Source of the DNA: Myxococcota bacterium
GTDB lineage: Bacteria > Myxococcota_A > UBA796 > CAJQPC01
Direction: 5' to 3'
DNA length: 64,000 nucleotides
Assembly (NCBI GenBank): GCA_036012755.1
Contig: DASCPX010000040.1
Coordinates: 68,800 to 132,799 of the forward strand
Shown piece by piece: positions 17,640 to 61,637 of this stretch (positions are counted from its first letter, which is position 1; each line of letters opens with the position of its first letter). Below the pieces are notes generated by a model. The model had not been told where the DNA came from. It did no database searches and saw nothing but the letters and a program-made list of their open reading frames with translations. The translations under genes were made by a program, and so were the position numbers.

Positions 17640-18170
17640 CTACCTGAGATCCCAGGCATAGCCCGGCCAGAGCGTGTAGACCGCGTCGTCCACCCAGCCG
17701 TCCTCGACCTCGCCGCCCCAGCCGTGCCCCTCGGCGAAGGCCCAGCCATGGGCCTCTGCGTTCTGGCCGTCGTAGCTGAGGCTCCAGCCCAGGGAATCCC
17801 CCGGGTGGGGGTCGTCGTCCGCGAGCTCTTCGCCCACGTCACCGACACCGATGGCCTCCAGCCCGCGGTAGCTGGCGTCGCTGACGAGCCCGGCGTCGCA
17901 GTCGTGCTCTATGTCCTCGAGCACGACCTCGTACATCGCGATGCAGCCGACGCAGTCGTCGTAGGCATCGACCTCGCTCCCCTCGATCGACTGCAGGAGC
18001 GTGCAGACGTGGTACGCGGGCTCTCGCTTGTCGTCCCAGCCCTCGGCGAAGAAGGCCCACACATGGTGCCCGGTGACACCAAAGGGCTCCGGCGTCACGG
18101 TGGCGTAGTTGACCGCCCAGGCGACATCTCCGCCGGGACCCGGAGCGCAGGCGAGGAGCAGTGAGAACAC
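17640..18170 (-). CDS. Acidic Cys-containing putative lipoprotein
   Basis: GTG start MFSLLLA|C, with an in-frame TAG 9 nt upstream. Confidence 0.8.
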   Translation of the reverse strand: MFSLLLACAPGPGGDVAWAVNYATVTPEPFGVTGHHVWAFFAEGWDDKREPAYHVCTLLQSIEGSEVDAYDDCVGCIAMYEVVLEDIEHDCDAGLVSDASYRGLEAIGVGDVGEELADDDPHPGDSLGWSLSYDGQNAEAHGWAFAEGHGWGGEVEDGWVDDAVYTLWPGYAWDLR

Positions 18171-18179
18171 GACCGAAGG

Positions 18180-19004
18180 CTAACGCTTCAGGACGCTGTC
18201 GACCTCGTAGCCGTAGTAGTAGTAGGTCGAGATGTAGGCAGGAGCAGGCGCTGTCGACGAGCCGGCGACCTCGATCTGCAAATACTCGCCGTCTTCGCCG
18301 GCGGCGAGGTTGCCGTCACCATCCAAGGCCGTGGCGAAGCCGTAGCCCATCTCGTTGACCAGGGTTCCGGAGTAGCCGTCGTCGACCTTCCAGTACACGC
18401 CGAAGATGTAGGGCTCGACCTCCTCCCATACGAGGCCCGCGTTCTGGTAGGCGTCGCGAAGCTCAGCGGCCATACCGATCGACAGCGGGGCCCAGCCGAA
18501 GCCGAAGTCCATTGTCTCCACCGCCTCGGTGGGCACGCCGTCGGCCCACTCGTCGGGGTCCCAGTCATCGCAGGTATTTCGGGTCGCGGTGGCGTCGTGC
18601 TCGAAGTGTGCGTCGAAGCCAGTCCACAGCCCGCTCACCCCGAGCCCGTCGTAGCCGTCCTGGACGATCTTGCCTGTCCACTCGCAGGTGTAGGCGTCGA
18701 TCTGGCTGTGACGGTAGTCCTCTTCGTAGAAGCGGAAGATCGCGTATGGCGCGACCTCGGTCCCCTCGATGCCGTAGGGCATGAGGTCATCGCCGTCGAA
18801 GCCGGCGTGCATCTCGACGGTGAAGAGCCAGGGGTCGAAGACATCGTCGGCGTCGGCGTCACTGTCAGCGTCCACGTCCACGTCCGCGTCCCCGTCGCAG
18901 CCGATGCCCGTGGCTGTGTCGCAGACCTGTCGGCCAGGACCGCCGATGCAGGCGGACAGCGCCGCGAGGATCAGCGCAGGGAGCAGCAGCCGTTGCAGCG
19001 TCAT
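18180..19004 (-). CDS. Acidic lipoprotein with Asp-X linker
   Basis: Signal ..LAALSA|C; DGDADVDVDADSDADADD linker. Confidence 0.82.
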   Translation of the reverse strand: MTLQRLLLPALILAALSACIGGPGRQVCDTATGIGCDGDADVDVDADSDADADDVFDPWLFTVEMHAGFDGDDLMPYGIEGTEVAPYAIFRFYEEDYRHSQIDAYTCEWTGKIVQDGYDGLGVSGLWTGFDAHFEHDATATRNTCDDWDPDEWADGVPTEAVETMDFGFGWAPLSIGMAAELRDAYQNAGLVWEEVEPYIFGVYWKVDDGYSGTLVNEMGYGFATALDGDGNLAAGEDGEYLQIEVAGSSTAPAPAYISTYYYYGYEVDSVLKR

Positions 19005-19074
19005 CGAGTCTCCGTCTGTGCCCCGGCCAAGTCACCGTACATGTGCGCCCCAGAGGCTCGCAAGCAAACCCTCG

Positions 19075-35467: not shown

Positions 35468-35632
35468 GGAGCCTGCCTCTCTGCTGGGGGCCCTTACATG
35501 GCGCCCGCGCGGGTGTTGCGGCGAACATCCTACACCAGCTCAGCATGCCTCCTGTCACCGTTGGGCTTTCCAAGCCGTACTCGAAGGACCCGACACCGGC
35601 GACAGGGGCCCGCGCGAGGTAGCATCGCGCGC

Positions 35633-37252
35633 ATGATCGCCACCCTGTTGCTGTTGTCCTGCGGAGGTCCTGCGGACCCGCTCGGGGCGTTGGACGCCGA
35701 GTACGTCGAGATTCGTGCGGGGCTCGCGATCGCCGACCGGGACACCAGCCGGAATGTCCAGAACAAGGAGGCCCGCGCCCGCAAGATCGAACACGAGCAG
35801 GCTCGCGTCGCCTTCTTCTCCGATGGCGAGGTGGCCGCCACGATCGACGAGGCGCGCAAGAGCTCGGACCCCACGACAGCCTGGAAGGGCGAGGCCTACT
35901 GGCGCGAGGCGCTGCTGGTCCGCTCGTGGACCGAGGCAGAGAAGGAGCGCGAGACCGAGCTGCTCGCGGCGATCGAGGACCTTCGCCACGCCGAGGCGAC
36001 GTGGTCGACCGAAGAGGGAACCGAGATCGCGCTCAACGGGCGCTGGGAGAGCGTCAGCGAAGGCGCCGATACGCTCTCCGCCGATGAGCGCGCCGAGCTG
36101 GCGGCGGCCTGGACGAGCCATCGCGTGGTGTGGATCGGCTCGGACCTCGAGGAGCTGGTGAGGCTGCGCAACGAGGTCGCGCGGCGAGAGGGCTTCGACA
36201 CCTACTGGGAGCTGGCGCTCGCCCATCGGGGGCTGACGCCGGAGCAGGTCGACGAGCTCGACGCCTCCATCTCGGCGCTGGTGACGCCCCACAACACCAG
36301 GCGTGCGGCAGCGCTCGAGCACATGGCCAAAGAGCTGGAGCTGCCGCTGGACTTCGCGAACGCGCCGCTGTTGGGCCGTCGCGCGGGACTGACCCTGGAC
36401 CGGACCGAGACCGACGCGTGGTTCGACAGCGACCTCGCCGAGGAGCGCGTGACGACCGCGCTCGGCGACCTGGGCATCTCCACAGAGGGGCTCCAGCTCT
36501 ACATCGGTCCGACCCGATACGCGCGCTCCGGCGCATACAGCTTCCCGATCAGGCCGCCGCAGCACGCAGCGGTCGTGCTCTCGAACGACACCCGCTGGTC
36601 GGACTGGCCCTACCGGGGATTGCTGCACGAGGTCGGCCTCGCCATCTGGTGGCGAAGCCTGCCCGCGGATCACGCCAGCTCCCCCGTCACCTGGCAGCCG
36701 CCTACTCCCTGGTTCGAGGGCTTCGGGGACTTCTTCGAGCGCATGCTCTTCGACGAGTTGTTCCTCGCCACCTACGTCCCCGAAGTGCCCGAGGAGTCCC
36801 GCGCCGTCTACGCCGCCTCCAGGGTCCAAGGCACCATCCAGACGCTGTCCTGGTACCTCGGCTGCACCCGCGCCGAGCGCATGCTCTATGAGCGCCCGGG
36901 TGAGTGGGAAGCGATCAGCGCCCAGCTCGCGGGGCAGGAGAGGGCGCTGCGAGGCGAACACTTCGACGCCCCGCCGGGGGACATCGCCTACACCAGCTTC
37001 CTCCAGTCGGGGCTGATGCTCAACTACCCGGCCTACGTCCAGAACTTCCTCTTCTCCAGCGCCACCGAGGCCCGCCTGTGGGAGGCGGCTACGGAGGCGG
37101 TCGGGCACCCGGTGGCCAACCCCAAGCTCGGCCCCTGGGTGGTCGACCTCGTCCACTCGGTCGGGCCGGGCAAGAGCTTCGAGCAGCGCCTGGACGAGCT
37201 CAGCGGCGGCGATCGCACCGACGCACTGCAGCGCTACCTCTCCGGAGGGTGA
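35633..37252 (+). CDS. M2/M3 gluzincin-fold lipoprotein with degenerate HExxH
   Basis: LVRLRNEVARREGFDTYW, LLHEVGL, WFEGFG, YPAYVQNF; N-terminus MIATLLLLS|C. Confidence 0.75.
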   Translation: MIATLLLLSCGGPADPLGALDAEYVEIRAGLAIADRDTSRNVQNKEARARKIEHEQARVAFFSDGEVAATIDEARKSSDPTTAWKGEAYWREALLVRSWTEAEKERETELLAAIEDLRHAEATWSTEEGTEIALNGRWESVSEGADTLSADERAELAAAWTSHRVVWIGSDLEELVRLRNEVARREGFDTYWELALAHRGLTPEQVDELDASISALVTPHNTRRAAALEHMAKELELPLDFANAPLLGRRAGLTLDRTETDAWFDSDLAEERVTTALGDLGISTEGLQLYIGPTRYARSGAYSFPIRPPQHAAVVLSNDTRWSDWPYRGLLHEVGLAIWWRSLPADHASSPVTWQPPTPWFEGFGDFFERMLFDELFLATYVPEVPEESRAVYAASRVQGTIQTLSWYLGCTRAERMLYERPGEWEAISAQLAGQERALRGEHFDAPPGDIAYTSFLQSGLMLNYPAYVQNFLFSSATEARLWEAATEAVGHPVANPKLGPWVVDLVHSVGPGKSFEQRLDELSGGDRTDALQRYLSGG

Positions 37253-37545: not shown

Positions 37546-39012
37546 CTACCTCATGTACGTCGTCAGTCCACCCTCTGTTCCGACGAAGAGCTCCTCCTCC
37601 GTGACGCTCAGCTGGTGGACCCGGGGGTCGAGGACCTCGATGGTGACGGTCTCATCGCCGACCAGGAAGAGGCCGCCGAGGGTGCCGACATAGAGGCCTT
37701 CCTCAGCGATTGCGAGGGACAGGATCCAGTCGTCCGGCGTCTCGACGGCCGTCCATGAGCGCCCGTCCCAGCGCCAGACTCCATCCCGGTAGGTGCCCGC
37801 CCAGGCCTCCCCCTCGGTGCAGGCCACCGCCATCACCCAGTCGTCCGGGAGGCCCGTGCTGCCGTCGTGGTGGCTCCAGCGTCGCCCGCTCCAGTGGGAG
37901 ACGCCGGCGTCCTCGCTGGCCACCCACGCCTCTGGTCCGCACGCGGCGACCGCCTGGTAGCTGGTGCCGAAGACCGAGAAGCGGTGGCGCCGCCAATAGC
38001 CCTCGTCCACCGAGACGGGACCGAGCAGATCGCTCATCCACAGGCGCTCTCCGCTGGCCAGCGCGGTGACAACGTCGTGCTGCAGTCCGGGCCGACCACG
38101 ACCCGAAGCGCCCTCCGTGATCACCTCCACGCTGTCACCGTCCCAGCGCGCGAGGCCGTGGCTGGTCGCCATCCACGCGGACTCCCCGTGCACGACCACG
38201 TCGTTGACGAGACGCCCCGGCAGTCCCTCGATGGGGTGCCAGGACTCGCCGTCGAAGCGACAGGCGCCGTCTTGGAAGGTCGTCACGACGAGCTCGCCGC
38301 GGAAGCGGTCGGCGCCCGTGATGAAGTTGCCGCAGATCTGCCCGTCGGGGGTGAGGCGCTCGAGGGAGTTCTCCAGCAGGTAGAGGCCATCCTCCGTGCC
38401 GATGAACCAGGCATCACCTACCTTCTCGAGACTGGTGACCGCCCCCGGTACGGCGCCGATCCGGCCCGCGTCGTCGGTGATGACGCCACCTCCGCGGAGC
38501 CCCCACCCCTCTGGATGGGCCGCGGTCGCGGGGATGCCGACCTCGACGAGCTCCTCGCCGTCGTAGACGAAGCTCGTGAAGAGGCAGGCGATGCGGATGT
38601 CCTCGGCCACGGCGACGTCCAGGACGGGGCAGCCCAGGGCCAGGGTGTCCTCGCCGATGACGAGGCCTTCGCTGCGGACCTCGACTGCCATTGTCCGCCA
38701 GCTCATGGCGGGGGCCACCGCGGGGACGAAGGCTCCGGTCTGCTCATCCCATCGGGCGCTGCCGAGCTCTCCGGTCGTGACGACCAGGGTGTCGGTGTAG
38801 GCGACGTCGACCAGATCGGTTGTCGGGAGCTCGATGGTGGCGTGTGCCAGGAGCCGGCCGTCTTCGCTCCATGCTTCCAGACCGCCGCCGGTGGCCGCCC
38901 ACAGGACCTGCCCGTCCCACAGGAGCTCCCGGATGTCTGACGTGTTGGTGTGAACCTGCACGACCTGTGGGGGGGCTGCCTGGGCGGCCACCGCGGCGAT
39001 GAAGAAGCTCAT
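37546..39012 (-). CDS. Secreted beta-propeller repeat protein
   Basis: Repeats LWAATGGGL, WFIGTEDGL, WMATSHGLARWDG, WAGTYRDGVWRWDG, LFVGTEGGL. Confidence 0.85.
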   Translation of the reverse strand: MSFFIAAVAAQAAPPQVVQVHTNTSDIRELLWDGQVLWAATGGGLEAWSEDGRLLAHATIELPTTDLVDVAYTDTLVVTTGELGSARWDEQTGAFVPAVAPAMSWRTMAVEVRSEGLVIGEDTLALGCPVLDVAVAEDIRIACLFTSFVYDGEELVEVGIPATAAHPEGWGLRGGGVITDDAGRIGAVPGAVTSLEKVGDAWFIGTEDGLYLLENSLERLTPDGQICGNFITGADRFRGELVVTTFQDGACRFDGESWHPIEGLPGRLVNDVVVHGESAWMATSHGLARWDGDSVEVITEGASGRGRPGLQHDVVTALASGERLWMSDLLGPVSVDEGYWRRHRFSVFGTSYQAVAACGPEAWVASEDAGVSHWSGRRWSHHDGSTGLPDDWVMAVACTEGEAWAGTYRDGVWRWDGRSWTAVETPDDWILSLAIAEEGLYVGTLGGLFLVGDETVTIEVLDPRVHQLSVTEEELFVGTEGGLTTYMR

Positions 39013-39114: not shown

Positions 39115-40404
39115 ATGTGGTGGCTTCTTGCCTGCACGAGCGAGCCGCCCCCGGCCTTGTCTCGCCCGGATGTGCTGCTCGTGGTGCTGGACACGGTCCG
39201 CGCGGACCACCTCGCGACCTATGGCTACGAGCGCGACACGAGCTACCAGCTCGACGCGGTAGCCGCGGCGGGGGTGGTCTTCGAAGACGTCACGGTGAGC
39301 GGGACCTGGACCTGGCCCGGACACGCCGCCCTGTTCACGGGCGAGCCCCCCTGGATCACCGGCGCCCACTACGTCGACGTCGACGCGGAGGTGCCCGTTC
39401 AGCGCATGCGGACTGACCTCCCCACGCTCGCGGAGCGCTTCGCTGGCGCCGGGTACACGACGGTGTCCCACAGCACCAACCGCCTGCTCGATCCTGAGAT
39501 GGGCCTGGTCCGCGGCTTCCAGACCGCCGAGATCCACGAAACCGACGCTGAGACCGTGGCCGCCGCGACCGCGGCGATGCGGTCAGCCGAGGCGCCGCTC
39601 CTGCTCTTCGTGAACCTGCTCTCTGCGCACGCGCCCTACTTCGTCGTGGACGGCGTGCCCTGGTCGGGTCGGCACCGCCAGGCTCTCGAGGGGGCCGAGG
39701 AGGGCACCACCCTGGGCACCATGCGTGTGGAGGCCCGCGGCGAGGTGGGGCTCGACCCCGGTCAGCACTGCGAGGGCTTCCGCTGCGACCTCAAGTGGAC
39801 CGCCGGAAACTGGGAGATCCGCCCGGAAGAGCTGGCGATGATCGCCGATCTCTACGACGGCAACCTCGTACAGGTCGACCACGCGCTGAAGACGCTGATC
39901 GGGGCCTGGGACAAGGGCGGCGTCGTCGCGGTGACCAGCGACCACGGGGAGTTCCTGGGCGAGCACCGCATGCTGCAGCACCGCCTGGTCACCCTGCCCC
40001 CGGTTCTGGAGATCCCGCTGGTGGTCGTCGGCCCCGGGCTGGAGGCGGGAGGTCGGGTCTCGACCCCCGTGCAGCTCCTGGATCTCTACCCGACCCTGCT
40101 GGAGATGGCGGGCATCGCCGAGCCCGAGTGGAGCCTCTCCGACGCGGCCGCGGGAGTGCCCCGACCTGGTCGCATCGAGGCAGCGGCGTGGCCTGACCCG
40201 CGACTGGCTTCCGTGCCCTTCGTCGCGCAGCGCTGGGGCTATGTGCGGGAAGGCGAGCGGTGGGGCGCAGCCAGCGGCGGCCTGGTCGTGGGAGACGAGG
40301 GTCTGGCCGAAGAGGCCCGCGCGGTCGGCTCCAATGAGCTCGGCGGCGGAGGCCTGATGTCCGAGGAGCACCTCGAGCGCCTCCGAGCCCTCGGCTACCT
40401 CTAG
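39115..40404 (+). CDS. Sulfatase-like hydrolase (alkaline phosphatase superfamily), putative lipoprotein
   Basis: DVLLVVLDTVRADH, WTWPGHAALFTG, AHAPY, TSDHGE, RLRALGYL. Confidence 0.9.
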   Translation: MWWLLACTSEPPPALSRPDVLLVVLDTVRADHLATYGYERDTSYQLDAVAAAGVVFEDVTVSGTWTWPGHAALFTGEPPWITGAHYVDVDAEVPVQRMRTDLPTLAERFAGAGYTTVSHSTNRLLDPEMGLVRGFQTAEIHETDAETVAAATAAMRSAEAPLLLFVNLLSAHAPYFVVDGVPWSGRHRQALEGAEEGTTLGTMRVEARGEVGLDPGQHCEGFRCDLKWTAGNWEIRPEELAMIADLYDGNLVQVDHALKTLIGAWDKGGVVAVTSDHGEFLGEHRMLQHRLVTLPPVLEIPLVVVGPGLEAGGRVSTPVQLLDLYPTLLEMAGIAEPEWSLSDAAAGVPRPGRIEAAAWPDPRLASVPFVAQRWGYVREGERWGAASGGLVVGDEGLAEEARAVGSNELGGGGLMSEEHLERLRALGYL

Positions 40405-40426: not shown

Positions 40427-41113
40427 TCACTGGGTGACCACGACCGGGACCCCCAGGCCGAACTCGAAAGCGCTGTGGCTGCAGTCCGTGTCGTCGTTGT
40501 CGCCCGTGGCCACGAAGGTGAAGTCGTAGCGCTCGGAGTCGTGGGCGTGGAAGGACAGCCGGTCGACCAGGTCGCCCCCGAAGTCCATCTCCAGGGTGCC
40601 GGGGGTCTCCGGCGGGGGGATGTTGCAAGTGGAGTCGCCGTCGTCCTCGCCGAGACACCAGGTAGGGATGTCGCCGAACTCCAGCGTGGAGCCGACCACC
40701 GAGGCCCAGTCCCAGGTCGGCAGCCCCACGTCATCCTCTGGCAGGAGGTCCATCAGCGGCGCGTAGCTGGATGCGAGCACGACATCGCCGAAGAGGAAGA
40801 GGAAGTTGTCGTCGTACTCCATGTCCTGAGCCTGGCCGCCGTCGATCCCTTCGAAGTCGAACTCGAGGCCGCAGATCACGGCGCCCTCTGGGAGCTCGAG
40901 TTCCGTCCTGTCCTCGATGCGGGCGGTGAAGACCGCGTTCTCCTCGGGCAGGTTGTCGAAGGCCCCGAAGGAGCAGGGGCCCTCCTCCTCGGGGAACGAC
41001 ACGGTCAAGAGCAGGTCCTCTGGTGTCTCCGAGGCGCACAGCTCGGCGATGGCCTCTGGGCTGTCGAGTTGGAGCTCGACGGTGCCCTTGCAGGCAAGCG
41101 AAAGCAGGATCAT
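40427..41113 (-). CDS. Acidic putative lipoprotein of unknown function
   Basis: MILLSLA|C; GGAGG SD; Cys-containing acidic domain. Confidence 0.8.
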   Translation of the reverse strand: MILLSLACKGTVELQLDSPEAIAELCASETPEDLLLTVSFPEEEGPCSFGAFDNLPEENAVFTARIEDRTELELPEGAVICGLEFDFEGIDGGQAQDMEYDDNFLFLFGDVVLASSYAPLMDLLPEDDVGLPTWDWASVVGSTLEFGDIPTWCLGEDDGDSTCNIPPPETPGTLEMDFGGDLVDRLSFHAHDSERYDFTFVATGDNDDTDCSHSAFEFGLGVPVVVTQ

Positions 41114-41152: not shown

Positions 41153-43396
41153 TCAGTCAAGGGTGACGACCGCCTCCATGCGATTCATGGCCCGGTCCTT
41201 CGCGACCACGCGGACCTCATCGAAGAGTCCAGGCAGGACGATCTGGATCTCCTCCTGGTCCCGGCCGCGGAGATCGACGCGGTGCCGCAGCTCCGGGTGA
41301 CCGACGGGCTCCACCCACACGCTGCGGAGCGGCTCCTCGGGGCGCAGGGTGACGCGGGTCACGCCGCGGCCCTTCTCGATGACGACGTCGAGCTCGGGGG
41401 CCTCTGAGTCGATGACGAGGAGCTCGGTCCAGACCTCGGTCGTGCCATCGGGCATCGTGATGAAGGCGCGGATGAGGTACTCACCGTCTTCGATCTCGCG
41501 CGGCACGAGGAAGCGATGGAACCAGCGCTGGCGGCGCTCGTCCCACTCCATTTCGACCACGGGTCCCCAGGGGAACAGCGCGATGACCTCTTCGGCCTCT
41601 GCCGGCGCCTCGATGGTCAGGAGCGGATCGCCGGGGGGCATGTACACCCGCGACAGGGCGCCGGTGGCCTTGACGACGTCGACGCCAGCGGGGGCCTCGC
41701 TGGGCTGCACGAGGGTCTCGTAGCCGCCCTCGTTCCGAACGCGGTACTCGACCGCGACGAAGCTCGTGTACCGGGTCATCAGGCGGTAGGACAGGGCCGT
41801 CTCGACGATCTCGGCCTTCACGTCCTCGATCTCGCCGTGGACCTGCTCCTTCTCGAGGGAGCGGACGCGCTGGCGCGCCCAGGTGGAGGCGATGGCGGTG
41901 CCGTCGTCGACGGGCTTCAGGACCAGGGTCTCCTCGTAGCGCCGGTGTCCCTGGCGACCGCGTACCGTGACCTCGGAGAGCTCTCCCTCGTAGCGACCGA
42001 CGATGCGAAGGGGCTGACCGACGAAGAGATCCGGCACCCGCTCCGGGTAGACCCCTTCGACCTCGGCCCCGCCAAAGTCGAGCTCGATGTCGGTGAGCAC
42101 CGGGCGGGCGATGCGCTCGTAGAAGTCGTCGACCTTGCCGTCGGGGGACTCGTTCAACAGCACGTAGGTCACGCTGCCGCGGCCGAACTCGGACATCTGG
42201 TCGAGCAGGTAGCGGTTGACCGAGCTGCCGATGCCGAAGCTGAAGAGCCGGCTGGAGCCGAGCTTGTCCCCGATGGCGGCCAGGATCTGCGTCTCGTTGC
42301 CGATGTAGCCGTCGGTCATGAAGCAGACGATGCGCTGCCGATCCGGGTCATAGGGATAGTCGAGGCTCGCCTCGATGCCAGCGAGCATGTGGGTTCCGCC
42401 CATGCCAGCCATGGCGTCGACGTAGTCGTGGCCCCGCTCGATGTTCGCCTTCGTCGCAGGCAGCGGTGCCGGGGAGAGAGCGCTGGCCCCCTCGCTGAAG
42501 CGGATGACCTGGAAGGTGTCGCCAGGCAGCATGCCGTCGAGCGCCATGTGCATCGACTCCTTGGCCATGCCCATGGGCGTGCCGGACATCGAGCAGGAGT
42601 TGTCGACGACGAAGATCAGCTCCCTGGGCACGACATGCGAGTCGACCGGCGCCTGCTGCGGCTCGAGGGTGAGGGCGAAGTGGCCGTCCTGGGTCAGCAG
42701 GCTGGCGATGGGCTGGTCGCTCTCCGGATCGATGTTCAGGACGAAGTCCCTGTCGCCGTGGAGGTCGTCGAGAACGATCTCGGCGCCGGTGGGGGTCATG
42801 CCCACGGCGGGCTCGTGGGTGCTGCTCCAGATCTCCTCGACGGGCATGCCCATCTCGATACGGACGTCGATGTCGACCGTCGCGCCGGTGGGCGCGATCG
42901 CCGTCGGGCGGGTCACCTTCTCGGCGTCTTCGACCATGCCCGCCGGGGCGAAGCGTGGCCCGACCGTCAGCGGCAGGTCGAAGGTGTAGACACCCTCGTC
43001 ATAGGACAGCGGCTGCGTCATGTGCAGGCTGACGTGGATGTCCTCGCCCGGGGCGATGTTGGCGACCGACTGGGTGAAGAGGTTCGGCCGCTCCTGCTCG
43101 GTCAGCGCCGCGGTCTGGCCGCGCTCGCGGGCCTCCTCGTAGGTCTGGCGGGCCTGCTCGCGGGTCTGGATCTCACCCTTCACGACCCGGTCCCCCATGC
43201 GCATCGACATGTCATCGACCGCTGACTGCTGGTGGAGCGGGAAGCTGTAGATGGCCTCGATGAAGCCCTCGTTCGGATTGCTGAAGGTCTGCTCGACCGT
43301 GACCTCTGCGTAGGGACCGGTGATCAGGACCGTGTAGCGGGTCTCCTTCAGGGGGAGCTCGGAGGCGAGGGCGGTCGTGGTGAGGAAGAGAATCAT
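41153..43396 (-). CDS. VIT + von Willebrand factor A domain protein
   Basis: VTVEQTFSNP..EAIYSFPL (VIT); DNSCSM MIDAS motif, MTDGYIGNE, FGIGSSVNRYLL; extra C-terminal MPPGDP domain. Confidence 0.93.
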   Translation of the reverse strand: MILFLTTTALASELPLKETRYTVLITGPYAEVTVEQTFSNPNEGFIEAIYSFPLHQQSAVDDMSMRMGDRVVKGEIQTREQARQTYEEARERGQTAALTEQERPNLFTQSVANIAPGEDIHVSLHMTQPLSYDEGVYTFDLPLTVGPRFAPAGMVEDAEKVTRPTAIAPTGATVDIDVRIEMGMPVEEIWSSTHEPAVGMTPTGAEIVLDDLHGDRDFVLNIDPESDQPIASLLTQDGHFALTLEPQQAPVDSHVVPRELIFVVDNSCSMSGTPMGMAKESMHMALDGMLPGDTFQVIRFSEGASALSPAPLPATKANIERGHDYVDAMAGMGGTHMLAGIEASLDYPYDPDRQRIVCFMTDGYIGNETQILAAIGDKLGSSRLFSFGIGSSVNRYLLDQMSEFGRGSVTYVLLNESPDGKVDDFYERIARPVLTDIELDFGGAEVEGVYPERVPDLFVGQPLRIVGRYEGELSEVTVRGRQGHRRYEETLVLKPVDDGTAIASTWARQRVRSLEKEQVHGEIEDVKAEIVETALSYRLMTRYTSFVAVEYRVRNEGGYETLVQPSEAPAGVDVVKATGALSRVYMPPGDPLLTIEAPAEAEEVIALFPWGPVVEMEWDERRQRWFHRFLVPREIEDGEYLIRAFITMPDGTTEVWTELLVIDSEAPELDVVIEKGRGVTRVTLRPEEPLRSVWVEPVGHPELRHRVDLRGRDQEEIQIVLPGLFDEVRVVAKDRAMNRMEAVVTLD

Positions 43397-43496: not shown

Positions 43497-44773
43497 TCAG
43501 ATCGGCAGCTCGTTCGCGCCGACCTGCGTCTCTTTCAGCTCGAGCTCTTCGGTCCCCGCGTCGATGTCCACGTCCAGATCAACGCGCGCGTAGCACCAGG
43601 TGCCGTCCGTGCCCCGCACCCAGGGAATGAAGCGCGCCGTCATCTTCGCCCCTGGCCAGAAGGCCAGCCCGGGGCTGTCATAGAAGGCGATCCGGTCGCC
43701 GTAGTGGCTCTTGTTGCCGTACGGCTCCGTGTAGTGGTCGATCAGCCAGGTCCCGTCGAGGTCGGCACGTAGCCAGCACGCGCTCCCGTCCCAGTGGCCG
43801 GAGGCGGCGGTGCACGCCGGCTCGGTACCCAGGCTGGTCTCCGAGACACCATCGCCGTCGAGATCGAAGTCCGGTCCCTGTCGACCCGCGACGATCTGGC
43901 AGGTCCCGTCCTCCATCGTGTCGATGAAGACGCCCTCGACCAGACCCTCCGGGCACCCGTTCGGTCCGGGGGGAAAGGTCGAGCGGCTCTGGAAGTACTG
44001 CCCCTCGGCGCAGAGATCCGGGCTGCCATCGATCTCGAAGTGACTCTCGAAGGCGTAGCCGAAGAAGGCCGGAACGTCGGCCCACTCCGTGTCGACGCGG
44101 CCGGCGAGGACGGCCCGTTGACCGTACCGGGCCCTGCGAGCGTGTGGTCGGGCCAGTCGAGCCCTTCGGCGACGGCGTCCGGACCCCAGGCCACGGCCTC
44201 GTCGGGCAGGTCGTCCCCTCGGATGTCGACGCTCGTGCAGGTGCAGTAGTCGAGCTGGACGAGCTCGCCCTCGTCCTCTGGATCTTCTGGAGGTTCGTAT
44301 CGGTAGCGTCGGGTGCGAATGCCCTTGTTGTCGTCGCGAATGATGATCGTGACCGTCGTGGCAGTGTCGAAGTACCGCTCGAGGACCAGGCACCCCTCGC
44401 CGAGGTACATCGTCTCCAGCTCCAGCAAGGGCCAGTGGTCCACTTCGATCGCGACCTCGTCCGAGGTGACCTCGCCTTGCCCATCTTCCACGACCACTCG
44501 GATCTTCCAGCTGTCGGAGCCATCGGGCGTCCAGGGTGCGAACCACGCTCCACCTGACAGCAGGGGTCCAGCCTCGACCCAGCCGCTGCCATCGTTCACT
44601 TCGAGTCGGCCACCCAGGATCAGCGCTGGTGCACGCGAGCCGACGACGACACGCTCTCCAGAAGCCAGGTAGGTCCCATCCGCCGGGTAGGAGATGAAGG
44701 GCTCCACGCGCAGACACTGGACCGAATCGCAGTCCTCGACATCACCCCCGGTACAAGCGAGCAACAACAGCAC
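43497..44773 (-). pseudogene. Frameshifted putative lipoprotein gene (real mutation or assembly indel)
   Basis: The N-part (GTG)LLLLA|C...GPGTVNG is in one frame and the C-part AVLAGRVDTEW...ANELPI in another. Adding one G at the GGG run 44114-44116 gives a single 425-aa ORF. Confidence 0.7.
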
Positions 44774-44919: not shown

Positions 44920-45927
44920 ATGTTCCTGTACCTGCTCGCCTGCCCCAAGCCGACGACCCTCGAGCCCCCGGTCTCGGAACAACGGCCCATCGTGCCTGCG
45001 CCGGTCGCGCCGATCTACACAGCCGCACCCGGAGTCCCAGCAGACCCGCTGGTTCGCTGGGCGCTGCCCGCCGCCGACGAGTCACTCTCCGGAGCGGCGG
45101 CGGCGCTGGCCTTCGTCCACGACGACCAGGGGAGCTTCGACGAAGCTGCCGCGCGCTGGGCGCTGATCCGGGCTGGTTGGCCCTACTCGTACGCGAGCGT
45201 CGAGATGCAGACCGTCGCAGCCGACGGGGTCCCCGAGGCGCTGGTCCAGACCGCGAAAGAGGTCCCCGACGGCGACCCGGTCGGCCTCGCGCGTGTCCGT
45301 GGAGATGACGGAGACACCTGGGTCCTGATCATCGGCGTGGTGAGCCAGGAGCTGCCACCCTTTGCTCGGGAGTCCGACATCGGCCAGGTGCTGGACCTGG
45401 GCCCGGCCCAGCGGAGCCTCGCTCCCTCCGGGAGGCTGCACGAGGGTCCGGTGGCCTTCGGGGAGCCCGGCGAGTGGCTCGTCGAGGTCGGCGACGTGCA
45501 GGTGCCTGTCTACGTCGGCGAGGAGACCCCGGAGGACGGTCCCTTCCTGCTGGTGGAGGCCGGACGGCCGAGCGAGGCCGAAGCCGTCGCGCGCACGACG
45601 GAGTCCCTCAACGTCCTGCGCGATCTGTTGGGTGCTGGCGACCTGGAGGTGGACCCGGTGCTGAACATCGTCGCTGGAGACGAGGCGGACCGCCGCGCCG
45701 CGGGGAGCCCCGGCGATGAGCGTGAGGGCACCATCCGCGGGGCTGGCTACGATGGAGCCGTCGGAGAGCTGGTGTGCACTGGTCGGACCGTGCAGGGATG
45801 CCTCGACAACCTGTTCTGGTCCATCGACGCGAGGCAGCATCTCGCAGACGGGGGCTATACACACGCCGGAATCGGCGCTCGCTGGACACCGGCGGGGCTC
45901 CTCATCGTGGTGGACCTTGCTGGCTAG
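44920..45927 (+). CDS. Putative lipoprotein with CAP/SCP-like C-terminal domain
   Basis: MFLYLLA|C; LNVLR..L..DPVLN..WSIDARQHL..THAGIG. Confidence 0.75.
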   Translation: MFLYLLACPKPTTLEPPVSEQRPIVPAPVAPIYTAAPGVPADPLVRWALPAADESLSGAAAALAFVHDDQGSFDEAAARWALIRAGWPYSYASVEMQTVAADGVPEALVQTAKEVPDGDPVGLARVRGDDGDTWVLIIGVVSQELPPFARESDIGQVLDLGPAQRSLAPSGRLHEGPVAFGEPGEWLVEVGDVQVPVYVGEETPEDGPFLLVEAGRPSEAEAVARTTESLNVLRDLLGAGDLEVDPVLNIVAGDEADRRAAGSPGDEREGTIRGAGYDGAVGELVCTGRTVQGCLDNLFWSIDARQHLADGGYTHAGIGARWTPAGLLIVVDLAG

Positions 45928-47092
45928 CCTCATCCTGTTGTCGTGCCGTCCGGAGATCGCACCGCTGCAGACCGACACGGACCTGGTCCGCTTCCGTCCG
46001 GTGCCCGTGCCCTCGAGCGAGACCGCGCGCACGATGACCGAGCGGGTCCCGGGGGCGACCTGGGACGCAGGCCTCGCCCGGGCTGTCGACCTGCTCGTGG
46101 CTCATGCGCAGGACCCCTCGGCGCGGATCCCGCCAGCGGCCCAGGCCGTCGCGCTGGCCCATGCCGGCTACCCGGGTCACGCCCAGTTCGGTCGGGAGCT
46201 CAACGGCGGCGCCTTCCCGGACGACCTCGTCGAGCAGGTCGTCCAGCTCGCGATTCAGCGCGATGTGCCCGTCGACGTCGCGCTGTCGAAGCGGGGCTAC
46301 GCGGACGGACGCAGCCTCTGGATCGCCGCGGTGGCGGCCCGCCCCGTCCTCGTGGACCCTCTCCCCCGGGACGTCGAGCTCGACGGCTCCCTGCCCGTCA
46401 CGGTCGAGGCGCTCTCGGGCGAGCCGGACATGATGCTCTACCTCGCCCCGCCGACGGGTCCGGTCGAACAGTGGCCGCTCACCAACCTCGTCGGGCGCTG
46501 GCTGGTCAGCTTCCACGTCCCTGGCGAGTATCGGGCAGAGGTCGTCGTCAACGACGGCACGCGCAGCGACGTGGTGCTCCTGTGGTCCTTCTTCGTCGAG
46601 TCCGAGCCGGCGGAGATGCAGCCACTGCCTCCCCTGTCGACCACACCCGAGAGTCCGATGCAAGCCGCGGACGCGCTCTATGGGGCGCTGGCCCAGCTAC
46701 GCGAGGAGGCTGGACTCGGAGATCTCGTGCGCTTCGAGGACTACGAGCCGCTGGCCCGCGAGCACGCCGCCTTCATGGCGCACTCGGGCATGGTCGGCCA
46801 CGTCATCCCCGGCTTGACGCAGGGGGTCGCCCACCAGGCGACGATGCGCTTCGTACCCCAGGCAACGCACCACGAGAACGTCGCCGCCGCCCTCACGTGG
46901 GAGGACGCCCACGACCTCGCGGTGCTGTCCCCCGGCCACCGCAAGAACCTCCTCTGCGAGAGTTGCACCCACGTGGCCATCGGCACGGCGCTGGAGCCGC
47001 CGCTGGACCGCGTACCGCGGCTGTTCGTGACCTGGGAGCTGCTCGAGTTCCCCAACGGATCGCCCAGGGAGCTCCAGGAGTACGACCACTGA
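45917..47092 (+). CDS. Putative lipoprotein with CAP/SCP domain
   Basis: TTG start MLASLILLS|C; AREHAAFM..HENVA..SPGHRKNLL..THVAIG. Confidence 0.85.
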   Translation: MLASLILLSCRPEIAPLQTDTDLVRFRPVPVPSSETARTMTERVPGATWDAGLARAVDLLVAHAQDPSARIPPAAQAVALAHAGYPGHAQFGRELNGGAFPDDLVEQVVQLAIQRDVPVDVALSKRGYADGRSLWIAAVAARPVLVDPLPRDVELDGSLPVTVEALSGEPDMMLYLAPPTGPVEQWPLTNLVGRWLVSFHVPGEYRAEVVVNDGTRSDVVLLWSFFVESEPAEMQPLPPLSTTPESPMQAADALYGALAQLREEAGLGDLVRFEDYEPLAREHAAFMAHSGMVGHVIPGLTQGVAHQATMRFVPQATHHENVAAALTWEDAHDLAVLSPGHRKNLLCESCTHVAIGTALEPPLDRVPRLFVTWELLEFPNGSPRELQEYDH

Positions 47093-50146: not shown

Positions 50147-50940
50147 TCAGCTCACCCAGATCTGAGCCCCCGACTGGCAGGACCCCGCGCCGAAGACGTC
50201 AGGTTGGTCCTGGCAGATCTGGGCCGTCCCGTTCGTCGAGTCCGTGGTCCCACCCCAAGGCAGGACCTTCCACTGGTTCCCAGGTCCGTTGCTGCAGCCG
50301 ACGCCCAGTGGCCCGCCTCGACGTCGGTGCAGGAGAAGCTCCCGGAGGCCGTCGTGCCGCTCGATGCGTAGCTGTAGCTGCCCTCCAGCACCTGGTAGCT
50401 CGACCAGCTCCAGACCAGGGTGGTGCTCGGGGAGATGTACCAGGCGGAGCCCGAAGAGTAGAGGTACTCCCGGCTGTCGCTGGTGCTCAGGGTGGCGAGG
50501 TGGCTGCTGGTCATCTGGGTCCAGGCGCCGCCATCGATGTCCATCTCGCACTCGACCTCGTAGCTGCCTGAGCCGTCGTCGAGGGTGTAGGTCCCGTCGG
50601 TGGCGCTGGGGTGGTCGGCGAGGACCTCTGCGCAGTCCGTCGCTGCGCAGTCCGAACCGCTGCCGAGCAGGCCCTCGTCGACGTCCCCGTCGCAGTCGTC
50701 GTCAGTGCCATTGCAGCTCTCGCTCGCCCCGGGGTTCACGTCGCCGTCGGAGTCGTCGCAGTCGTCGTCGAGGTCGTTGCAGAGCTCGTCGGCCCCTGGA
50801 TTGACCGCCTCGTCCCCGTCGTCGCAGTCCTCGGCCGCCCCGTAGCCGTCGCCGTCTTCGTCGTGGAACTCGCTGTCGTCGATGGTGCCGGTCTCGAACC
50901 CGGGGCTGCCCTTGCCGCAGGCGAGCAGGAGGAGGAACAT
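50147..50940 (-). pseudogene. MopE-like repeat plus fibrinogen-like (CxM..GGxW) lipoprotein with a late frameshift
   Basis: DCDD..VNPGA.E.CN..DDDCD repeats; VECEMDIDGGAWT. One extra G at 50304-50306 joins GHW to GVGCSNGPG...IWVS (264 aa). Confidence 0.72.
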
Positions 50941-50997
50941 CGCTCGAGTCTACTGGCAGACCCCGTCATCACAACTGAAGTCCACGCGTAGCCGCCC

Positions 50998-55966: not shown

Positions 55967-56415
<449 letters not shown>

Positions 56416-56419
<4 letters not shown>

Positions 56420-57813
56420 GCCTGGCTCTGCTGCTGCTCATCGGTTGCGCCGCTTGGAAGAAGCACATGGCCGAGGGCGACGCCTGGATGGAGAAGGACA
56501 ACCCGGGCGCCGCCAGCCGGGCATACGCCAAGGGCATCGAGGCGCGCCCCGACGAAGCCATCCTCCACCTCAAGATGGCCGAGGCCCTCATCGCCGATGC
56601 CGAGTACCAGCGCGCAACGGAGCACGGCGCGATCGCCCTCGAAGCGGGGCTCACGGAAGCCGAGCTCGTCCAGGCCGAGGCGTGGCTGGGCATCGGCGCG
56701 CCTGACACCGCCATCGACCTGATCAAGCCCCTCGCGACCAGCGGGGACCCTCGCGTCGGTCGCCTGATGGCGGAGTCCGAGCTGCTCCGCGGGGACCTGA
56801 CCGCCGCCAACCACTGGCTGCGTGAGTCCTCCCAGAACACCAAGGACCCACGGCTCTGGGGCGCCTACGCCTATGTCGCCGCGCGCCTCGGAGACATGGA
56901 GCCCGTCGCCGAGGCGACGCTGATGTCCAGGGACTGGCAGGACGTGCCCATCTCGGCCCACGCCGACATCGGCGCCGCGTGGCTCGTCGCCGGAGAGCTG
57001 GCCAACGCAAAGAGCCAGTCCATCGAGACGATCGCCATCGACCCGAACGTCAAGGTCGAGGGCGGAGCCCGGGACCAGTGGCGGGACGCTTCCTACCGAG
57101 CGGCGCAACAACAGCGCTACGAGGCTGCGATCCGCAGCGGCCTGCGCGCAGCGGCCATCCAGAACGACGACGCGGAGCTGAGCTGGAGGCTAGGCACATG
57201 GTACGCTGCCGCAGATGACTGGGAAGGCGCCATCCCGTGGTTGGAGCTGGCGTTGGTCACGCCTCCCTACGACGCCCCAGAGCAGCTCGCCGCCACCTCG
57301 AGCGTGTTAGCGGTGGCGAGCGCCGGCGGCCTCGACCCGAGCGCCAGGAACGAGATCCGTGGCCAGATCGCCGAACTCCTCGCCCAGGCCTACAGGCGCA
57401 CGGGACAGGTCGAGGAGGAGATCGGGGCGCTCGAGATCCTCCTGGCGACCGGGGCCACGCTCGATCCGGACATCCTCTACCGCATGGCCCTGGTGCTCGA
57501 CCAGCTCGGCCGTCACAAGGACGCAGCCCGCACGGCGATGGAGGCAGCGCGCCGCGGACACGACTCGGCGGCGGCGCAGGCCGCCCGCTCCTTCTTCAAG
57601 GCGGGAGACGTGGAGAACGCGGTCGGCTGGGCGCTGCAGGCCTGGGAATACGCACCGGAAGACCCGGAGCTGGCGCTGTTGCTCGCCGAGATCTACGTCG
57701 CGGACCGGCGAATGGACGCTGCCCTGGACATCCTCGACTTCAGCCTCCTGGCTCATCCGGACGACCGCCGGCTGAAGCACACTCGCACCCAGATCATCGA
57801 TGCATCGCGCTGA
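56416..57813 (+). CDS. TPR-repeat putative lipoprotein
   Basis: MSLALLLLIG|C; many TPR-like helical pairs. Confidence 0.85.
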
Positions 57814-57882
57814 TCTTAAGCCCTCTTGACAACCACCGCGGATGCGCGGGCCAGAATGCTCGCCTTTCCGTTCGGGAGAACC

Positions 57883-60800
57883 ATGACGACCCTTTCGCGG
57901 ACGCAGTACCTCGCTCTTCTTGCTGCACCCCTCGCTGTCCTCGTTGCGCCGATCGAAGCCGAAGCGGCTGATGTCTTCGCTGCTCCCGGCCACGCCCAGA
58001 TGCTGCCGGCATCCCTCGTGGGTGACGGTTCCACGGAGGCGACGCTCCACATCGTGGCGTTCGCGCCTGACGGAAGCCCCCTCGAAGGAGTGAAGGGCAA
58101 GGTGACCGCCACCTCCGGAACCGTGGGCTCGCTCACGGCAAAGGGTGGGGGTGTCTACGCCTTCTCGTTCACCCCAGCGGAGTCCGCCGCCGCGGGCGAG
58201 GTCAGCTTCACGCTCAGGGCCAAGACCACGACAAAGGCCAGCTTCGACAAGAGCTGGACCCTGCCGGTCTCACCGCGGCCGCCCGCCACCGTGTCGATCA
58301 GCGCGAACCCCTCGGAGCTGATCCTCGGTCAGGACAAGACGACCGCGCTGTCGATCAAGCTCACGGACGCCGCCGGCAACGCGATCGCAGATGGCGCCGA
58401 GGTCTCGGTGCGCGCGAGCTCCGGCAGCGTCGAGGCGATCACCTACCTGGGCAACGGGACATACACCGCGCGCTACGCAGCGAAGGCGGTCAACTACCCC
58501 CACCTCGACATGGTCACCGTGGCCGACGCGCGGAACCCGGACGAGGTCTACGGCGTCTTCGCCCTTCAGCTCACCGGCAAGACCGACTTCCCGGTGTCGG
58601 CAGGCCCCAACGCCACCGTCATCATCAAGGTCGGCGGACGGGACTTCGGTCCCTACACGACCGACACGACCGGGCGCGCTCGCGTTCCGATCATGGTGCC
58701 TCCGGGAGCGGGCTCCGCCACCGTCGTCACCGTCAACCCCGACGGCTCCACGGAGGAGACCCCGCTCGACCTGAAGATCCCGGAGACAAGACGCGTCGCG
58801 CTGTTCCCGCTCGATGCGACGATCGCCGGGGACAGCACCCAGACCGTCACCGTCCGCGCCGCAGTGCGCACACCCACCGGGAGCCCCGACACCACCGCCA
58901 AGGTCACGCTGAAGACCTCGATGGGCACGATGGGCGCGACGACGCACGAGGGCAAGGGCATCTACGCAGCGACCTGGAGCCCCCCCGACCTGGTCACGGC
59001 CGACTCGATCGACGTGACCGCGTCCATCGACGGGGAGCCCGGGCTCCAGACGGACACCCTGTCGGTGGCGGTGGGAGCCGCTCCTGCGACCAGCGTGACG
59101 CTGAGCTCGGAGCCCACATCGCTGAGCGCGTCTACGACCGGCTTCAAGCTCTACACCAAGGTGGAGAGCGCCTCCGGCAAGGGCCTCGACGGACGGGAGC
59201 TCGTCTGGATGGTCAACGGCGCAGAGGTCAAGGGGACGAAGGACCTCCACAGCGGCGACTACACCTCGACCTTCTCGACCAGCGGGAAGGAGGGCGTCCA
59301 GGTCACCGCGATGGTGCCTGGCGCCATCTCGGGGAACCCGCTCCACCGGATCGTCGTCCTGCCGGAGACCGAGCGCATCGCCAACGACGGACGCACCCTG
59401 ACGGGCGTCGTCGTGCTGACGGTCGACCGCTTCGGATACCCGGTGCCGGACGTCGACGTGGCCCTCAAGCTGGTCGGCGACGGCAAGCTCCAGAAGACCG
59501 TCACCACCGACGAGAACGGGACGGCCCGCGTCTACCACACGGCGGGCTCGACGGCCGGAGTCAGCTGGCTCCAGGCCCACAGCGGCGAAGTCTTCGGGAG
59601 CGCCGCGATGCTGCAGCTGCCGGCGGACGTGGCTCCGGGCTTCGAGCTCCCCACCTCCGGCGACGCGGCCACGGTCGCGAGCGCCGAACGCTTCGACAAG
59701 GCGATCGCCACGCTGGTGATCCCTCGGGCGGGCAGCGCGGCGATCGCCGGTGCGGCGCCGGGGGATGTGACCGGGAAGGCCGGCGCGCTGGCCACCCTCG
59801 AGGCCTCCGCCTCGCCCAGCGAGGTCGCTCCGGGCGGTACGGTCACCATCAACATCTCCGCAAAGGACGCCGAAGGTCGCGGGGTGGCCGGACAGAGCCT
59901 GACCGCGCTCACCAGCGTCGGCACGATGGCCGCTGTCAGCGACGCTGGAGGCGGAAGCTACTCGGCGACCCTCACGGTGCCCGAGTCCGCCCTGGGTGTC
60001 GCCATGGTCGTGATCACCTCTGGTGACGGCAGCGTCTCCAGGGCCATCCAGGTGCCCGTGGATGCGCCCGCTTGGGGCTCTACGGAGCCCGCGGTCGCCG
60101 AGCCCGAGCCCGTCGTCGAGCCGACCCCGGTTGTCGAGCCGACCCCGATCGTCGAGCCGACCCCGACGAAGGAGCGGACGACATCGGACTTCCCGCAGGT
60201 CCGAGCCCACATAGGCGGCGTGCTGGGCAACTACAGCTACACGCAGACCCGCACAGAGGTCGAGAGCGTCCTGTGGGACGACAACGTCAACCTCGGCACC
60301 TCGGGCCAGGACGACGACGCCCCCGCCGGCGCCAGCGGCTTCGACCTCAACGTCCAGGGCTGGACCCGTCCGCTGGTCGCAGACGCCGTCAGCGTCGGAG
60401 GCGAGGCCCAGGTCCGCACGACCTTCTACAGCGTGCAGTGGCCAGGCACCGACGCAGAGGACGCCATCGATGACGGCGTGCCCCACCTGACGGCGCTGGG
60501 CAAGGTGCGCTACGCCTTCGAGAGTGGAAACAACCAGTTCCACGTCGGAGCGAAGGTCGGCTACGGATACGGTGACTTCATCACCTACCAGAAGGGCACC
60601 GCCGAAGGCCTGCTGGGCTTCGACAGCCTGCCGCTCCACAGCCTCAACCTCGGAGCCGAGATCGGCGCGACCTTTGGCGATCGCGCGCATGTCAGGGCCG
60701 ACTTCGTCGAGGGTTTCTACGGAACCACCCCCTACTCGATGAACATCGCCTTCGACGCGGGCGTGAAGCCCTCGACCTCCCTGCCGGTCTTCGTGGCCGC

Positions 60801-60921
60801 GGGCTTCCAGCTCACCGACCGCACGATCGAGATCGTCGCAGCCGGCGAGGAGGCCACGCAGGTCGGCTCGCTGTCCGACACGCAGATGCTCGTCTACCTG
60901 GGTCCCGGCTTCGAGTTCTAA
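57883..60921 (+). CDS. Invasin/Big-like Ig-repeat protein with Pro-rich linker and C-terminal beta-barrel
   Basis: Repeated GNGTYTARY / GKGIYAATW / GGGSYSATL and DAAGNA / DRFGYPV motifs; (EPTPVV)n linker; amphipathic strands ending GPGFEF. Confidence 0.85.
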
Positions 60922-61637
60922 CCCCGGCTGATGGTCACGCGACGAAGCTCGACGGCCACCAGCGGCTTGTCGAGCCCGTCGCGCTCGACCCCGGCGATCT
61001 CCCGGACGACGTCGAGCTCCTCGCACTCCCCGAAGATGGTGTGGCGCCCGTTGAGGGTCTGTTGGGCGCCAGCGGTGATGAAGAACTGGGAGCCGTTGGT
61101 GTTTGGCCCCGCGTTCGCCATCGCCAGCAGACCGGGGCGGTCGAAGACCAGCTCGGAGACGATCTCGTCCTCGAACTTGTAGCCAGGACCGCCGGTCCCG
61201 TTGCCCAGGGGATCCCCTCCCTGGATCATGAAACCAGGGATGACTCGGTGGAAGCTGGTCCCGTCGTAGAGCCTGCGATCGACCTCGAGCCCCGTGCGTG
61301 GGTCGCGCCAGCTCCGAGTGCCCTCGGCGAGCTCCACGAAGTTGAGCACGGTGATCGGCGCCTTGTCGGGCCACAGGACGCAGTGGATCGTGCCCATCGC
61401 CGTGTCCAGCGTCGCGGTCAGGCCCTCGTCGCCCTCGACTCCCAGCCGGTTCAGGGTCTCCCGAACGCGCTGGTCGTCCAAGCGACCCTCGAGCGTCTCC
61501 GACCGGGACTTCCAGGCGTCCCGCTGTTGCTCGGCGGTCTCGAGCTCGACCTCCAGCCGCTCGACTCGAGCCGACAGTTCATCCCGCTCGGCCAACAACT
61601 CGGCCGGAGGTCCACACGACAACAGCATCCACAGCAT
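60918..61637 (-). CDS. Cyclophilin-type peptidyl-prolyl isomerase with N-terminal coiled coil, putative lipoprotein
   Basis: [40 protein letters not shown]. Confidence 0.95.

Follow-up and report, generated by a model that had tools for sequence, protein, structure and literature searches.

How short, and how poor in charge, can the N-terminus of a bacterial lipoprotein be? The question is raised by a stretch of 64,000 nucleotides from an uncultured Myxococcota bacterium (GenBank assembly GCA_036012755.1, contig DASCPX010000040.1, positions 68,800 to 132,799 of the forward strand; hereafter the window, whose own numbering is used for its genes), in which ten reading frames open with only six to ten apolar residues followed by a lipobox cysteine. 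A preliminary description of the window had listed these N-termini and proposed that they form a lineage-specific class, largely missed by prediction tools and served either by a separate export or lipidation route or by adapted machinery. The analysis reported here indicates that the short leaders are true N-termini which would probably act as minimal lipoprotein signals, processed by the ordinary Sec, Lgt and LspA proteins.

Genomes are annotated, secretomes predicted and secretion tags designed by rules for recognizing signal peptides (a basic n-region, a hydrophobic core of about 7–15 residues, a total length of at least 15 residues); in this one genome about three in four lipoprotein-type N-termini break all three of them, while orthologues in sister genera keep them.

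Two Classes of Leader in One Genome

The source assembly comprises 6.73 Mb in 250 contigs, and its coding frames were called by the G+C content of third codon positions (GC3), which yielded 6158 stop-to-stop frames. A survey of leader length, carried out with a rule that ignored charge and preferred the upstream start when the support of two candidates tied, returned 442 lipobox N-termini, distributed as follows.

6–11 residues: 324 leaders, lysine or arginine in 4, mode 7
12–13 residues: 9 leaders, lysine or arginine in 1
14–23 residues: 81 leaders, lysine or arginine in 75
beyond these length ranges: 28 of the 442

Leader length is thus bimodal, with two discrete classes, and about three in four of the genome's lipoprotein-type N-termini belong to the short one, where the Cys stands at residue 7–12 (mode 8) and where the leader form typical of the window is Met plus 5–9 residues, free of lysine and arginine, ending in L-L-[A/G/S]-Cys. 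The classes differ also in composition: leucine makes up 46% of the body of short leaders versus 26% of classical h-regions, and mean hydropathy is 2.69 versus 2.02. In the short-leader lipobox, L occupies position −3 in 69% and position −2 in 64% of cases and A, G or S stands at −1, figures which come from a search pattern that itself required a lipobox. The 14 residues after the Cys are rich in P, D, G, T and E alike in both classes.

Several counts bear on the possibility that such N-termini arise by chance. A lipobox Cys after an apolar run, at most 14 codons from the upstream stop, is found in 180 of the 6158 frames, and 140 of these hold a start codon inside the apolar run (ATG in 86, GTG in 50, TTG in 4), giving leaders of 6 (28 frames), 7 (57), 8 (28), 9 (15) or other lengths (12), with a mode of 7. 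The pattern ATG-(NTN)5-GCN-TGY occurs 42 times in the genome, versus 0 times with its codons in reverse order. Starts supported by a Shine-Dalgarno site or a −10 box and followed by a lipobox Cys at residue 7–12 number 350 of 5857 within codons 1–150 of open frames; by the same measure there are 44 of 2939 deeper in the frames, at codons 200–350, and 7 of 1778 at codons 350–500.

The Short Leaders of the Window

Retranslation returned the ten lipobox N-termini exactly as the preliminary description gave them, together with the two short leaders lacking a Cys that it reported at 39012 and 43396; in the genes at 18170 and 44773 (GTG) and at 45917 (TTG) the first residue is Met solely by virtue of initiation. 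All ten leaders end in a lipobox of the form [LVI][ASTVI][GAS]-Cys, and none has a basic n-region, lysine and arginine being absent throughout. The genes, referred to below by the position of their start codons, are the following.

17640..18170, minus strand: protein of 176 amino acids, leader V(GTG)FSLLLA-C encoded at 18147–18170; no Pfam or NCBIfam match; stop 3 codons upstream
18177..18182, minus strand: −10-like hexamer TAGCCT, at −12 to −7 from the GTG of the 18170 gene; its TAG is the in-frame stop
35633..37252, plus strand: conserved lipoprotein-type protein of 539 amino acids, leader MIATLLLLS-C; no family match; TAGCAT at 35620–35625
37546..39012, minus strand: protein of 488 amino acids, Cys-less leader MSFFIAAVAAQA; without detectable start signal
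39115..40404, plus strand: sulfatase-family protein of 429 amino acids, leader MWWLLA-C; PF00884, E = 3.9e-25; TAGAGT at 39101–39106
40427..41113, minus strand: protein of 228 amino acids, leader MILLSLA-C; GGAGG 5 nucleotides before the ATG
41153..43396, minus strand: VIT and VWA protein of 747 amino acids, Cys-less uncharged leader of 11 residues, MILFLTTTALA; AGGAG upstream
43742..44773, minus strand: open frame, leader V(GTG)LLLLA-C; coding-like for about 200 codons, frame signal lost near 44180
44920..45927, plus strand: protein of 335 amino acids, leader MFLYLLA-C; GAGGAG upstream
45917..47092, plus strand: CAP-domain protein of 391 amino acids, leader L(TTG)LASLILLS-C; PF00188; 11-nucleotide overlap between its start and the stop of the preceding gene
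50152..50940, minus strand: protein with MopE-type metal-binding motif, 262 amino acids, leader MFLLLLA-C; PF11617; TAGACT at 50947–50952
56416..57813, plus strand: TPR protein of 465 amino acids, leader MSLALLLLIG-C; Pfam TPR; GGGAG upstream
60918..61637, minus strand: cyclophilin-type prolyl isomerase lipoprotein of 239 amino acids, leader MLWMLLS-C; PF00160; TAGGTT at 61644–61649
61664..62416, plus strand: lipoprotein signal of the classical charged kind, MSMRCALVLLVSGLTA-C, listed as a reference

Searches of Pfam and NCBIfam gave no match for 6 of the 12 window proteins with short leaders. Normal charged signals do coexist with the short ones, as had been stated: three classical lipoprotein signals begin in the window at 61664 (plus strand), 54816 (minus) and 17581 (minus).

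Two of the genes show peculiarities of their own. Past about 200 codons the 44773 frame has a non-coding composition (G+C content at second codon positions 0.76–0.88), and an open frame at 43497..44717 spans its 3' part; a frameshift, a sequencing error or decay of the gene could account for the loss of frame. The TTG of the CAP-domain gene (45917) lies within the last 11 nucleotides of the 44920–45927 gene, in a different frame, an overlap which suggests translational coupling.

Start Codons and Predicted Leaderless Transcripts

The claim that no longer signal is hidden upstream of five of the genes is borne out. The frames at 18170, 50940 and 61637 are open for just 3 codons upstream, that at 41113 for 13 and that at 44920 for 27, and none of these open stretches contains ATG, GTG or TTG. 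Upstream of the remaining five starts 58–239 codons are open, long open upstream frames being common at the 68% G+C of this DNA; in the frame of these genes GC3 is 0.48–0.68 across the 50 upstream codons versus 0.73–0.92 downstream, and this step indicates that coding begins about at the proposed starts. A −10-like TAGnnT ends 6–8 nucleotides before the starts at 18170, 35633, 39115, 50940 and 61637, and a Shine-Dalgarno-like site precedes those at 41113, 44773, 44920 and 56416; of the Cys-less leaders, 43396 has an AGGAG site, while a start signal was looked for upstream of 39012 and not found, which makes the latter the least certain leader of the set. Translation of the ten genes starts at the proposed codons. 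Since five of them combine a −10 element just ahead of the start with the lack of a Shine-Dalgarno site, the mRNA of about half of the ten genes probably begins at the start codon, that is, is leaderless.

The same signals recur across the genome. In 70 of the 140 frames described above the upstream stop lies exactly three codons away, and it is TAG in 55, TAA in 10 and TGA in 5; the stops at gene ends in this genome are TGA in 4006, TAG in 1893 and TAA in 158 cases. The upstream profile of the 140 frames (G at −14, 0.59; T at −12, 0.65; A at −11, 0.59; G at −10, 0.66; T at −7, 0.43) is, judged by its motif, a predicted −10 promoter box at the distance expected for transcription from the start codon, and the same hexamer peaks at −13/−12 ahead of short-leader starts with long upstream frames, where no stop was required. 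A transcript beginning at the start codon would leave no room for a hidden n-region.

Promoters of this type are widespread in the genome beyond the short leaders. When TA[AG]nnT followed by ATG or GTG is counted, spacer 6 forms a peak (200 ATG and 174 GTG, versus 35–73 for spacers 3–5 and 8–10), and the excess of boxes 6–7 nucleotides before ATG or GTG over neighbouring spacers is estimated at about 340. Since the TAG of the preferred box falls at −12, in-frame stops exactly three codons ahead of the start are present in many genes. The −10 box stands before about a fifth of the short leaders in the genome, and a Shine-Dalgarno site before more; of the 310 starts of leaderless type which lie close to the 5' end of their frame, 62 belong to short lipoprotein leaders and 58 to other uncharged apolar N-termini.

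Distribution of the Short Leaders

For comparisons among genomes the trait was defined as the per-genome count of ATG-(NTN)5-GCN-TGY. In 301 genomes of the phylum, counts of at least 20 were obtained only for the source genome, for genus g6 of its family and for family f6 of the same order (genera and families carry our own handles), other orders and classes giving 0–4. A survey of 101 genomes within the order gave the following counts.

g1 (source genome and congener): 42, 48
g6: 44–90
f6: 3–41
g215 of f5: 45, 64
f63: 14, 17
g5 of f1: 3–9
f4, most of f2 and f3, g16 of f5, g3 and g4 of f1: 0–4

High-trait and low-trait genera neighbour each other within families, and the view that the class is lineage-specific agrees with these figures, the counts being high just in some genera of one Myxococcota order. 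Leaderless usage was considered as a driver of the trait and rejected: when TAGNNT-N6-ATG is compared with its control in the 101 genomes, neither the ratio (rho 0.16) nor the excess (rho 0.24) correlates more than weakly with it, and several high-trait genomes have no excess at all.

From Classical to Minimal Signals in Orthologues

Matches to the 35633 protein are present in 46 of the 101 genomes, one per genome in nearly all, and at all 30 loci examined an N-terminal lipobox Cys follows an apolar run at the start of the conserved part. What precedes this Cys changes from lineage to lineage: families f4 and f5 have classical leaders (e.g., MKSTLRMFALSSLICFG, MLTTAHRRWTLLALLFVG and MHFNPRVAFLLAVLTAS), genera g3 and g5 have 13–14 residues, mostly uncharged (one g3 leader carries an Arg), and g1 and g2 have 8–9 residues.

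The cyclophilin encoded at 61637 behaves similarly. The Cys is kept at 30 of the 30 loci examined, mostly as C-G-P, behind the leaders MLWMLLS and MFWLLLA in g1, MLLSLLLMG in g2, MRLIPLVLFSLAA in g4 (with VRLSPLMLFIFAA at one of the four g4 loci), and leaders of 12–24 residues, most with lysine or arginine, in f3, f4 and f63. In g6, a high-trait genus, this protein mostly has the classical MKKSFFVPVFSILFTLTA, and one of four loci reads MLMLLAALVA; the change of signal therefore runs gene by gene. Taken together, the series from long charged leaders (16–24 residues) to short uncharged ones (7–9 residues), with the Cys kept, indicates that the short leaders are truncated classical signals.

Orthologues of the VIT and VWA protein (43396) have uncharged leaders of 11–16 residues in many genera, some of which have few short lipoprotein leaders. 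In particular, loci L164–L178 carry Cys-less uncharged leaders of 11–12 residues in genera poor in short leaders (G328, G355, G317 and G187), so that the count of the lipoprotein pattern may understate how widely the n-region has been lost in the order.

Signs of Export

Exported-type domains (sulfatase, CAP, MopE, VIT/VWA) are present among the window proteins. The genome also contains 21 matches over the cut-off to MYXO-CTERM, a tag which, in the accessible part of PMC11980579, is described as a cell-surface sorting signal; 14 control genomes gave 0 matches, and the matches agree with the Myxococcota origin of the DNA. A supported start is found for 15 of the 21 tagged proteins (6 are without one), and these 15 comprise 9 with uncharged leaders of 7–17 residues, 3 with charged signals and 3 without a signal-like start, the cleavage sites having been assigned by eye. 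One of the 9 (contig C5:15779-16922, plus strand) has a lipobox leader of 7 residues, MFLFLVA-C, in addition to its MYXO-CTERM tag at the C-terminus; judged from its two ends, this protein would have a lipid anchor at the first and be sorted through the second.

Lipoproteins canonical for the outer membrane served as test cases. BamD is a lipoprotein in E. coli; the homologue found here (YfiO; C149:39926-40537, minus strand) has no lipobox Cys and begins MFALLLTLSLPAVAA-K, an uncharged N-terminus of the signal peptidase I type. No match to LptE was found in the genome, and Pal-like proteins have classical or Tat-like signals.

Export and Lipidation Machinery

The source genome has one match each to SecA, SecY, Ffh and Lnt (the last over the cut-off), two to LolA, five to Lgt and two to LspA, SecA and Ffh having been examined for presence and copy number. 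Four of these genes stand in tandem and in the same direction, as lspA-lspA-lgt-lgt, on contig C59:100000-102591, outside the window, and the fifth lgt match lies on the window's own contig (C40:2459-3163). Of the separate export or lipidation route that had been envisaged no sign was found: a canonical set is encoded, and orthologues with classical signals have the Cys at the same place.

The number of Lgt genes does not explain the trait either. Two to six Lgt matches are present in nearly every genome of the order, their mean is 4.1 in high-trait and 3.8 in low-trait genomes (Spearman −0.02), and tandem lgt pairs occur also in genomes with a count of 0; copy number is thus unrelated to the trait and was discarded as its cause. 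LspA copy number, although enriched in high-trait genomes, is neither necessary nor sufficient.

A tree of 54 LspA sequences shows that g1 and g6 keep two old f1 clades, that g4 and g5 have one of these and g3 and g209 the other, and that g2 has one copy in this second clade (that of g3 and g209) and one grouping with f6; g215, and g20 of f6, each have a duplication of their own. Tandem LspA pairs occur also in low-trait f2, where a duplication of the lineage's own is shown for G157 alone. In a comparison of 50 SecY sequences two glycines were found replaced in some lineages; the SecY of the source genome (C80:13592-14611, locus L044) has both Gly-to-Ala changes.

Weighing the Explanations

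That the class is an artefact of start-codon choice, the true proteins beginning upstream with normal n-regions, is by now scarcely credible, and for the class as a whole this explanation is already largely refuted. It draws on the five of ten window genes that have long open upstream frames and on the tendency of high-GC DNA to keep many frames open, but it does not accommodate the in-frame stops three codons upstream in three window genes, the 140 genes of the genome which permit at most 14 codons before the Cys, the −10 or Shine-Dalgarno signals correctly spaced ahead of the short starts, or the coincidence of the GC3 rise with them; moreover, the apolar run opens at ATG (42) or GTG (32) and in just 9 cases at CTG or ATC, although genomes as GC-rich as this use CTG for Leu very often. 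It is very unlikely, if somewhat less so, that the proteins are not Sec substrates and that the apolar stretch and the Cys constitute an anchor on the cytoplasmic face of the membrane or the site of some other Cys modification: the leaders do fail the classical criteria of length and charge, and the export of these proteins is deduced, but they have orthologues with classical signals and an aligned Cys, their domains are of exported types, short uncharged leaders are found also on MYXO-CTERM-tagged proteins, and the linker-like composition after the Cys is that of the classical lipoproteins of the same genome.

The possibility that the short leaders need adapted machinery, be it a second LspA, an Lgt paralogue or a SecY altered at two glycines, deserves more attention, and yet it must be judged improbable. 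In its favour, two LspA matches are present in 16 of 19 high-trait genomes, against 24 of 62 low-trait ones with at least two, a second LspA arose or was kept separately in g1 with g6, in g215 and in g20 of f6, and lspA and lgt duplicates stand in tandem on C59; likewise, SecY changes from RLTxGGAxY to RLTxAGAxY and from ERGQRR to ERAQRR in g1, g6 and most of f6, while both sites are Gly in the low-trait or intermediate f1 genera g2, g3, g4, g5 and g209. Against it, the high-trait G212, G335 and G343 have one LspA match, duplicates of LspA and of Lgt stand in tandem in f2 genomes of low trait, the trait is independent of Lgt copy number, and SecY has A or V in f4 (count 0–1) and G in g215 (count 45), f63 and g212; besides, the genomes are related, so that the comparison involves no more than three or four independent origins. 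LspA duplication and the two SecY Gly-to-Ala changes, which bear on the original proposal of adapted machinery, track the trait only loosely; in the case of SecY the counter-examples in f4 and g215 preclude a firm link to short signals. As read from these alignments and copy numbers, the LspA and SecY patterns may serve as leads, not as associations that hold.

The reading preferred here, in which the leaders are minimal signals for the ordinary pathway, has its own difficulties. Export, lipidation and cleavage of the short-leader proteins are inferred from sequence alone, mRNA 5' ends are predicted from sequence motifs, cleavage sites of the Cys-less leaders were assigned by eye, and genes were called by GC3 and simple motif rules, without a trained gene finder. 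We know of no functional h-region as short as the 3–6 apolar residues which precede the lipobox in these leaders. The lack of a Cys in BamD implies, furthermore, that envelope biogenesis in this lineage differs. Finally, in the part of PMC5427057 that was accessible, the compensation described by Hikita and Mizushima (1992) consists in a longer hydrophobic stretch, not a shorter one.

If the leaders do act as minimal signals, they would enter the lateral gate of SecYEG, aided by SecA or by the signal recognition particle; Lgt would put diacylglycerol on the Cys, LspA would remove the leader, Lnt would add a third acyl chain and LolA would carry the protein onward. High hydrophobic density might offset the missing length and charge, the free α-amino group being the sole positive charge, if any. 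The gap at 12–13 residues that separates the length classes suggests that leaders are seated in the membrane in two ways: charged signals would cross it with their N-terminus kept on the inner side, and uncharged ones, too short to span it, would need no cytoplasmic anchor. A more elaborate scheme can be built on this gap, and it is put forward with considerable doubt: charged signals of at least 14 residues would span the membrane, uncharged leaders of 6–11 residues would act as hooks which do not span it and which pass in their entirety into the SecY gate and the outer leaflet, and this hook mode would have evolved repeatedly within a single Myxococcota order, accompanied by two SecY glycine changes and retained or new LspA duplicates. 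If true, this would provide a natural minimal signal redefining the needs of Sec, Lgt and LspA.

Comparison with Known Systems

The leaders break the charge and length criteria of rule-based predictors, in line with the expectation that prediction tools would miss them; such predictors would probably overlook most of the envelope proteome in these lineages. The finding of short leaders here, and of long charged signals on the same proteins of relatives, implies that export signals can fall far below the textbook length, and because the same proteins occur in nature with signals graded from classical to minimal, they are suited to testing the requirements of SecYEG, Lgt and LspA; a seven-residue leader, if it does work, would also be a compact tag for secretion or lipidation.

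With lipoprotein signals of the E. coli Lpp type the leaders share the lipobox L-[L/I/A]-[A/G/S]-Cys and the flexible P/D/G/T/E-rich stretch after the Cys, and the systems are further alike in that lgt, lspA, lnt and lolA are present and the proteins are orthologous to proteins with classical signals. They differ in that 320 of 324 short leaders have no n-region with lysine or arginine, in length (6–11 residues versus 14–23 in the genome's own classical class) and in a leucine content nearly double that of classical signals. The classical lipoprotein rule (PROSITE PS51257 and the LipoP literature) places the Cys at about residue 15–35, after an h-region of at least 7 residues; the short leaders, with the Cys at residue 7–12, fall short of this position.

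Leaderless mRNAs with a −10 box 6–7 nucleotides before the start codon occur in Actinobacteria and Deinococcus, and the TA[G/A]nnT found here at −12 to −7 from ATG or GTG, with its sharp peak at spacer 6, resembles them; the likeness, however, concerns the mRNA rather than the signal and covers about one-fifth of the short leaders.

Lipoprotein processing of the Myxococcus type likewise involves multiple LspA paralogues (PMC13616975, citing Xiao and Wall, 2014): the phylum is the same, lspA and lgt are multiple, and signals depart from the E. coli norm. According to the accessible part of PMC13616975, myxobacteria carry two or more Lsp homologues and their type II signals behave oddly in E. 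coli; ultrashort or uncharged leaders are not mentioned in that part, and in the present genomes the number of paralogues does not separate trait-positive from trait-negative ones. No published description of ultrashort or uncharged signals in Myxococcota was found in the literature searched, a search whose coverage left out most subscription journals.

A functional parallel is offered by the minimal and poly-leucine signals engineered in E. coli. The laboratory constructs of Hikita and Mizushima (1992) and of Chou and Kendall (1990) reportedly kept longer cores. It was found, as far as the accessible part of PMC5427057 relates, that positive charge at the N-terminus becomes dispensable when the hydrophobic stretch is longer (Hikita and Mizushima, 1992), and the likeness to the leaders described here, drawn from what could be consulted of these studies, lies in a core hydrophobicity that offsets missing charge; the difference is that the present leaders are natural, shorter and borne by hundreds of genes.

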